DNA of 39,389 nt from Escherichia phage vB_EcoP-Ro103C3lw: the sequence record MN067430; one strand, 5' to 3'. The position numbers and the translations under genes were made by a program. A model generated the notes under the pieces. It saw only the letters and a program-made list of their open reading frames with translations, was not told where the DNA came from and did not search any database. Shown piece by piece: positions 10,987 through 12,690 of this stretch; the first letter of the stretch is position 1; every line of letters starts with the position of its first letter.

Positions 10987-12690
10987 ATGTCATATGAAGA
11001 CCAAGAGCAGGACGATAGCGTCTTCCTCTACCACACCGAGTGTCCAGACTGCGGGTCTTCGGATGCCAATGGTGTTTACTCAGACGGGCATATGTATTGC
11101 TTTGCGTGTGACCCGTCAGTCGCTTGGAAGAAAGGCGACATGGAATTGACCGAAGGTTACACACCTTCAGGAGGTAAGAAGCAAGTGAGCAACCTGTTAA
11201 CGTGGGGTGAGAACTCAGGACGTTATGTACCACTCCCGGCTCGTGGACTATCGGCTGACATCTGCAAGAAGTACAGCTACTGGGTAGGCATGATGCAGGG
11301 CAAGATGGTCCAGATTGCGGACTACTACGACAGGTCCGGGACCAAGGTAGGACAGAAGGTCCGAGACGCTGAGAAGAACTTCACGGCTATCGGTAGCGTC
11401 AAGAATGACCTACTGTTCGGCTCCCAGCTCTGGTCAGGTGGCAAGAAGATTGTCATCACCGAAGGCGAGATTGACTGCCTGTCAGTCGCTCAGGTGCAGG
11501 ACGGTAAGTATCCGGTGGTCTCCCTTCCGTTGGGAGCTAAGTCTGCGAAGAAGACACTGGCAGCGAACCTTGAGTACCTCGACCAGTTCGAAGAGATTAT
11601 CCTGATGTTCGACATGGACGAGCCGGGGCGTGAGGCTGTAGAGCAAGCAGCTCCGGTCTTACCCGCTGGCAAGGTAAAGGTCGCATTCATCAACGGGTAC
11701 AAGGACGCCAACGCTGCACTTCAGGCCAAGGACTTCAGGGCGATTCAGGATGCAATCTGGAACGCAGTACCTTTCGTCCCGGCTGGGGTGGTGAGCGCCA
11801 AGTCTCTTAAGGACAGGACCCGCGAGGCAATGCTGAAGGCTGAGACTGAAGGTCTCCTCTTCTCGTCCTGCACAACACTCAACGCGATGACCCTCGGTGC
11901 GCGAGCTGGTGAGCTTATCATGGTGACTTCAGGGTCAGGCATGGGTAAGTCCACCTTCGTCCGTCAGCTCCTCTTAGAGTGGGGCAGAAGCGGTAAGCGT
12001 GTGGGTATGGCGATGCTAGAGGAAGCAGTCGAAGAGACAGTTCAGGACCTCATAGGTCTGGACAATAACGTCAGGCTGCGTCAGTGTGCCGACCTGAAGG
12101 AAGCAATCCTGAAGGATGGACGGTTCGACGAATGGTATGACAAGCTGTTCAACGACGATAAGTTCCACCTGTACGATTCATTCGCGGAGTCGGAAGAAGA
12201 CACGCTGTTCGCTAAGTTGGCCTACATGGTTGACGGGCTGGACTGCGATGTCATACTGCTGGACCACATCTCAATCGTGGTGTCTGGCATGGAAGATAAC
12301 TCAGATGAGCGCAAGACCATCGACAGAATCATGACACGCCTCAAGAAGTTTGCGAAGACGAAGGGTGTGGTTGTCGTGGTAATCTGCCACCTGAAGAACC
12401 CGGATAAAGGTAAGTCACATGAAGAAGGTCGTCCAGTTAGTATCACTGACCTGCGTGGGTCTGGCGCTTTACGTCAGCTATCTGATACCATCATTGCCTT
12501 GGAGAGAAATCAGCAAGGTGATACTCCTAACGTTGTTCAGCTCCGTTTGCTTAAGTGTCGCTTTACTGGCGATACGGGCATTGCTGGACATCTTGAATAC
12601 AACAAGCTCACAGGGTGGCTTGAACCGATTAGCACACCTAGCGGAAGCGGAGAGGAGGATAGCAGCTCGTGGGAAAACCAAGACTTCTAG
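10987..12690 (+). CDS. gp4: DNA primase/helicase (T7 gp4 homolog)
   Basis: 567 aa; N-terminal zinc ribbon CPDCGSSD...[26 protein letters not shown], Walker [54 protein letters not shown]-terminal acidic tail ending DF. Confidence 0.96.

Follow-up and report, generated by a model that had tools for sequence, protein, structure and literature searches.

Does gene 4 of Escherichia phage vB_EcoP-Ro103C3lw give rise to a single primase-helicase, or does it also direct synthesis of a shorter helicase from an internal start codon, as gene 4 of phage T7 does? The gene occupies positions 10987-12690 (+) of sequence record MN067430, a stretch of 39,389 nucleotides that is referred to in its entirety as the window. 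In T7, the 63-kDa gp4A is accompanied by the 56-kDa gp4B, which is initiated internally at Met64 and is present in an amount approximately equal to that of gp4A (PMC1616965, PMC2910064). What T7 gp4B does in vivo is still described as unknown (PMC2910064). In the window phage, a strong Shine-Dalgarno (SD) sequence and an in-frame GTG codon lie within gene 4, in the linker that follows the zinc ribbon, and the nucleotides of this site are conserved within the genus and have counterparts, mostly with ATG, in nearly every T7-like lineage. Based on these comparisons, we consider it likely that gene 4 carries a second, internal initiation region yielding a gp4B-like helicase of 501 residues. This would be the 4A/4B arrangement known from T7 and T3, found here in a different genus and with GTG as the internal start codon instead of ATG.

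An SD sequence and in-frame GTG within gene 4

Positions 11170-11187 of the window read GGAGGT AAGAAGCAA GTG. Together with the preceding A, the SD forms the heptamer AGGAGGT at 11169-11175 (+), which matches the 3' end of 16S ribosomal RNA and is encoded by TCA-GGA-GGT (Ser61-Gly62-Gly63). It is followed by the A-rich, nine-nucleotide spacer AAGAAGCAA (11176-11184, +) and by the in-frame GTG at 11185-11187 (+), which encodes Val67 of the full-length protein, gp4A, and is where the short form is proposed to begin. The original prediction had named the motif correctly but began it at 11171 rather than at 11170 (or 11169 with the preceding A). Its description of a strong in-frame SD nine nucleotides before GTG 11185 was accurate: the duplex of this SD with the 16S anti-SD has a predicted energy of -11.7 kcal/mol, equal to that of the T7 4B site.

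The resemblance to T7 extends to the gene, the domain order and the linker in which the start lies, and the SD is in both cases drawn from Ser-Gly-Gly codons within an identical 11-mer, TCAGGAGGTAA. The GTG codon is situated past the fourth zinc-ribbon cysteine, C41, and ahead of the Helic-prim_T7_N domain, which begins at residue 78. Equivalence to the T7 start, as originally proposed, holds to within one codon and is not exact: in a gapless alignment, T7 Met64 falls opposite Gln66, and Val67 is one residue downstream. The proposed replacement of Met by Val was confirmed, codon 67 being GTG and its T7 and T3 counterparts ATG. Val67 is exactly opposite the corresponding Met of Berlinvirus, since SNLL follows the start in both (V-SNLL and M-SNLL). 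The T7 site differs in having ATG and a six-nucleotide spacer after GGAGGT, whereas the window has GTG and nine nucleotides; also, the short product has been demonstrated in T7 and is predicted from sequence in the window phage. All computable defining features of the T7 4B type are present except the identity of the start codon.

Translation from GTG 11185 would yield a product of 501 residues and 55.3 kDa (11185-12690, +) that contains the Toprim and helicase domains and lacks the zinc ribbon. The crystallised 56-kDa T7 gp4B (1q57, chain residues 4-499) aligns with residues 69-564 of the gp4A query, and the predicted product agrees with it to within one residue. The parent protein, gp4A (10987-12690, +), has 567 residues and a mass of 62.5 kDa. 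It aligned end to end with T7 gp4 structures (E=2.8e-233), matched the Pfam families Helic-prim_T7_N, Toprim and DnaB_C, and has the architecture of T7 gp4, a fused primase-helicase in which an N-terminal zinc ribbon is followed by the Toprim RNA-polymerase domain and the DnaB-like helicase. The Cys4 zinc ribbon (C19, C22, C38 and C41; CPDC...CFAC) is encoded at 11041-11109 (+) and aligns with the T7 zinc-binding domain.

A single transcript is expected to carry both starts, since no promoter-like site other than the phage-RNA-polymerase promoter at 10810-10829 (+) lies near gene 4. This promoter was recognized by recurrence of its 20-mer, of which four more copies occur in the window at three or fewer mismatches, compared with 0 expected. 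Consensus scans found no sigma-70-like or phage-type promoter between 10987 and 11185; an internal promoter was therefore rejected as the source of a short product, and any such product must arise by internal translation initiation. An Rfam search of 10600-11600 returned nothing at threshold; the only hit, to a glycine riboswitch, fell below it (11420-11509, E=0.19) and was taken as chance. Between the phage promoter and gene 4, a 31-codon open reading frame (ORF) at 10881-10976 (+) encodes the hydrophobic peptide MELTVWHGLVVVSGLSILTLGIIGYLTGRLG; its ribosome-binding stretch, AAGGAGTGACCAATG, is repeated verbatim before gene 4, and the gene-4 SD contains its TAA stop codon.

GTG is among the standard start codons of bacteria, and the window phage uses non-ATG starts for real genes, as judged from two cases. 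The gene for the gp3 endonuclease has its likely start at GTG 9460 (+), adjoining the gp2.5 stop codon (TAATCGTG), and the most likely start of the large terminase gene, gp19, is TTG 36719 (+), behind AAGGAGGTG. The gp19 N-terminus that results presumably agrees with that of T7 gp19. Gene calling that favours ATG would truncate both gp19 and gp3. The heptamer AGGAGGT occurs 10 times in the window (7 expected), nine of them on the + strand; apart from the one within gene 4, all eight of the latter directly precede start codons, among them TTG 36719 of the terminase gene and GTG 17048. Such usage is unlike chance and speaks for a function of the copy within gene 4. The use of GTG instead of ATG is a variation on the 4B arrangement and does not exclude membership. 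Near the right genome end, AGGAGGT followed by ATG 38965 (38955-38985, +) precedes an ORF of only seven codons, MIGYGEG.

Conservation of the linker across T7-like lineages

In order to compare the site between lineages, gp4 loci were collected from IMG/VR using three queries and were combined with the reference records of T7, T3, K1F, 285P and SH4. An SD was scored as strong at a duplex energy of at most -9 kcal/mol. Since the lineages are related, neither clades nor sequences can be counted as independent trials. Of 145 distinct gp4 sequences, 118 have a strong SD and an in-frame start codon no more than 45 codons past the zinc ribbon, the background for the same combination elsewhere in the gp4 gene being 0.063 per 45 codons. 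In nearly every T7-like lineage, the zinc-ribbon linker contains GGAGG and an in-frame start codon three to nine nucleotides past the GGAGGN hexamer.

The linker peptides that surround this combination fall into 15 contexts, of which 12 have ATG and three have GTG. The ATG contexts are PSGGKPM (T7), TGGSKPM (T3), IVGGGKPM, NTGGDKM (Berlinvirus), YGGNKM, RGGKSM, SGGSM, KGGNYGM (KP32-like), RGGNNKM, KGGAAM, QGGAKM and TGEGSKM; the GTG contexts are SGG[KR][KR]QV (Kayfunavirus), NGGDKV and SGGKRV. The residue at the start position is either Met or Val, the latter always encoded by GTG, and nothing else was found there. Outside Kayfunavirus, GTG occupies the equivalent place in locus L038 (Morganella phage MP2-like, NGGDKV) and in L072/L076 (KP32-like group, SGGKRV). 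ATG is found instead in the close relatives of these loci (L041 and the KP32-like group); the two codons have thus replaced each other on more than one occasion. At both sites, which lie in the linker used by the window phage, GGAGGT precedes GTG-AG[CT] in frame; they differ from the window site in their six-nucleotide spacers and linker peptides and are unannotated.

The codons behind these peptides are informative. Wherever the linker motif is Gly-Gly, the first Gly codon is GGA. In L186, GGAGG is retained in another codon phase (GGG-GAG-GGA, encoding Gly-Glu-Gly), and in the distant L200 an Arg-Ser pair carries TAGGAGT. The 36 Gly columns conserved in all gp4 sequences served as a control: none is fixed for GGA, and the wobble base varies freely between clades. 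Judged from these codons, selection is on the nucleotides of the linker and not on the peptide.

The spacing and sequence of the window site are also found in other genera. The site of T3 and phiYeO3-12-type phages, GGAGGC AGCAAGCCT ATG, has the same arrangement and the same nine-nucleotide spacer and differs in its ATG start and in its linker peptide, TGGSKPM. Its product is annotated by 'in-frame internal initiation' in RefSeq NC_003298 and in the SH1/SH2 table. The Przondovirus site, GGAGGG AATTACGGG ATG, likewise has the nine-nucleotide spacing of the window. The closest positional match is that of Berlinvirus (285P-like), NTGGDKM-SNLL, in which the SD is GGAGGT and SNLL follows the start; it differs by ATG and a six-nucleotide spacer, and its record names the gene '4a' and lists no 4B.

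Four lineages, represented by L079, L185, L188 and L189, have neither an in-frame start codon in the linker nor GGAGG, from which it follows that SD and start are present or absent together. In L189, Ser-Gly-Gly is kept twice and is encoded with GGC-GGG and GGT-GGC.

These observations bear on whether the internal GGAGG might have a role other than initiation, such as ribosome pausing, mRNA stability or mRNA processing, with GTG serving as a plain Val codon. Internal SD-like sequences have been proposed to pause ribosomes, although this is disputed. Constraint on synonymous positions (described below) reveals that the sequence is constrained and not for what purpose, and a small hairpin of six base pairs (GAAGGT / TACAC / ACCTTC; 11152-11168, +) in the local minimum-free-energy fold ends directly 5' of the SD AGGAGGT. 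One pair of this hairpin covaries between haplotypes (GAA..CCT and GAG..CCC); it is broken in two metagenome contigs, which makes the hairpin too weak to build on and its role uncertain. A role unrelated to initiation would hardly account for an in-frame start, ATG or GTG only, three to nine nucleotides past GGAGGN in every lineage with GGAGG, nor for the absence of GGAGG from the lineages without a start codon. Moreover, the Val codon is GTG in all three Val lineages and in every Kayfunavirus sequence, and the same element is known to initiate translation in T7. We regard such a role as very unlikely and internal initiation as the better account of the linker.

A group of IMG/VR contigs (L217-L243) that are approximately 42% identical to the gp4 of L038 has AAGGAGG, eight nucleotides and an in-frame TTG 12 codons past the zinc ribbon. 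By its sequence, this arrangement may represent the same internal start with TTG as its codon.

Synonymous variation within Kayfunavirus

The window phage belongs to Kayfunavirus, the K1F-like genus of the T7 family. Its gene 4 DNA is 95.8% identical to that of Escherichia phages IMM-002 and Pisces and 90-93% identical to that of Kayfunavirus phages of Cronobacter, Citrobacter, Shigella and Salmonella. Synonymous variation was followed in a small sample of 24 distinct gp4 sequences and 12 pattern matches, compared with approximately 250 GenBank genomes that match gp4.

Both GGA62 and GTG67 are retained in all 24 distinct sequences. Only 20 of the 152 conserved four-fold codons (13%) never vary among these sequences, and the two key codons are both included, while GGA makes up approximately 20% of the Gly codons of Kayfunavirus gp4. 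A scan of metagenome contigs with a pattern leaving both wobble positions as N returned 12 matches, all 12 with GGA and GTG. Synonymous diversity across codons 61-72, a segment running from the SD through the spacer and the GTG to the fifth codon after it, was 0.10 against a gene mean of 0.276. This trough ranked 10 of 426 windows, or 4 of 469 when seven-codon windows were used, and is among the lowest 1-2% of windows in the gene; it is expressed as a rank rather than as a formal P-value. The ATG site of the KP32-like phages (Przondovirus) has the same trough signature (rank 14 of 503). The T3/T7 cluster was uninformative as a control, since its linker is misaligned between T7 and T3 types.

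Could the site nevertheless be a decaying relic, its ancestral ATG changed to GTG, its short product not made in useful amounts any more and its motif kept only by ancestry? Only one transition separates GTG from ATG, the site has disappeared completely from four lineages, and the bare motif is not more frequent in the window than chance predicts. In addition, T7 reportedly grows without 4B in the laboratory, for which Mendelman 1992 and Rosenberg 1992 are cited. Set against decay is the variation of 87% of comparable four-fold codons in Kayfunavirus, in which neither the two key wobble bases nor the surrounding 12 codons take part. Lineages that have truly lost the start have also lost GGAGG, and GTG and TTG work as starts for other genes of the window phage. 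A relic is quite unlikely on this evidence, which points to a site that is still selected.

Three further troughs in gene 4 are equally deep. They lie at approximately 11374-11409, 11704-11742 and 12145-12183 (codons ~130-141, 240-252 and 387-399), and no promoter-like match or obvious motif was seen in the third. A separate irregularity concerns the K1F reference gp4 (L086, NC_007456, 940-2700), which has 586 residues and a longer, different C-terminus without the terminal acidic ..DF that the window phage shares with other relatives. Either a frameshift in the record or genuine variation may explain the difference.

Existing annotation and the predicted short form

The T7 and T3 records annotate 4B, and the K1F record gives gene 4.0 only. 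Among Kayfunavirus phages, Citrobacter phages SH4 and SH5 carry a 'gp21B' that begins at Met52, and SH3 carries an 'ORF22B' that begins at approximately Met101; both share the idea of 4B and use ATG codons without a proper SD. In the window, Met52 corresponds to the ATG at 11140-11142 (+), and a short form, if there is any, might start there rather than at GTG 11185. This codon is an ATG, is conserved in Kayfunavirus and lies past the zinc ribbon; it would give a product of 516 residues, has a coding sequence (CDS) in the SH4 and SH5 records, and is followed after seven nucleotides by the end of a +1-frame ORF (10994-11149). Its SD is, however, weak in the window (AAAGGC, four nucleotides from the ATG). 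Close relatives with AAGGGC have a duplex of -5.3 kcal/mol at Met52 compared with -11.7 kcal/mol at the GTG site, and in the K1F subgroup AAAGGAG is only two nucleotides from the ATG, which is too close. Other genera have no Met equivalent to Met52, and their start is always located after GGAGG. The SH4 record itself marks 'gp21B' with 'no experimental evidence', and the different start chosen by the same authors for SH3 (approximately codon 101) suggests that only an ATG was sought. For lack of a usable SD and of homology in other genera, Met52 and the codon near Met101 were rejected as 4B starts, and we consider it very unlikely that Met52 is the main start of a short form. GTG 11185 is the preferred start.

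Several points weigh against initiation at GTG 11185. In the window there are 25 occurrences of the bare motif GGAGG-N4-10-RTG, compared with 20.7 expected from shuffles, and approximately four other intragenic GGAGG sites have a nearby in-frame start codon. The motif alone therefore proves nothing, and it is the comparative evidence that carries the case. Part of the constant use of GTG could itself reflect recent ancestry, since GTG is one step from ATG and is its only one-step derivative encoding Val; invariance within Kayfunavirus argues against this explanation, though the lineages are related. Predicted mRNA accessibility is moderate at the GTG site, which falls within approximately the best 20% of in-frame positions and resembles the true gene-4 start in this respect; according to this folding model, local mRNA structure does not single out the site and neither helps nor hurts. 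Of the 58 Kayfunavirus records in GenBank/RefSeq with a match to this stretch, not one has a CDS starting at GTG 11185, and exact look-up of four predicted GTG-started products in a collection of 15 billion proteins found none of them. Literature searches found nothing on a GTG-initiated gp4B and no proteomic or ribosome-profiling data on Kayfunavirus gp4, the mass spectrometry of SH3 and SH4 covering virion proteins only.

Two further points of this kind concern the yield of the short form. In T7, the stop codon of gene 4.1 (L084, position 590) overlaps the ATG of 4B (587) as ATGA, and T3 is similar. The window has the corresponding GTGA, but its +1-frame ORF at 10994-11149 (51 residues, in the place of T7 gene 4.1) stops 36 nucleotides upstream and has no start codon after it in the +1 frame. 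Any contribution from coupling to 4.1 would thus be missing. In E. coli, GUG is generally a weaker start than AUG. With a GUG start and a spacer of nine rather than six nucleotides, the ratio of short to long form is probably lower than the roughly 1:1 of T7.

From the position, strength and nucleotide conservation of these elements, we infer the following course of events. On the single gene-4 mRNA transcribed from the promoter at 10810-10829, 30S subunits would bind AGGAGGU at 11169-11175, which would set the initiator transfer RNA on GUG 11185, nine nucleotides downstream of the SD. The product, of 501 residues and approximately 55 kDa, would begin fMet-Ser-Asn-Leu-Leu and share the frame and C-terminus of gp4A. 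Since the Cys4 zinc ribbon is lost, and by analogy with T7 gp4B, the short form would be a helicase without template-directed priming that can co-assemble with the long form; the expectation regarding priming draws on T7 biochemistry (PMC2910064). A 4B-like product lacking the zinc ribbon, as first proposed, stands as a prediction, in support of which are the co-occurrence of SD and start, the invariance of the wobble bases, the lack of a promoter between the two starts in consensus scans and the presence of GTG in two further, independent lineages.

For annotation, the consequence is that the few existing Kayfunavirus 4B entries sit at ATG codons without a proper ribosome-binding site or counterparts elsewhere. 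K1F-like phages find use in therapy and engineering; expression of their gp4 would give two proteins unless codon 67 were changed, comparable to mutation of Met64 in T7. Retention of the site at synonymous positions in many genera, although T7 gp4B is dispensable in the laboratory, suggests that the short form is of consequence in nature. Naturally occurring ATG and GTG versions, together with the four lineages lacking the site, provide ready material for probing its role. More tentatively, and with doubt still outweighing confidence, the internal gp4 start may be an ancient element across the Studiervirinae that is selected at the nucleotide level, with switches between ATG and GTG and possibly TTG, spacers of three to nine nucleotides, and a ratio of forms with and without the zinc ribbon that is set by lineage, Kayfunavirus being low in 4B. 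If ratios are indeed set in this way, the short form would have a dosage-sensitive function in nature.

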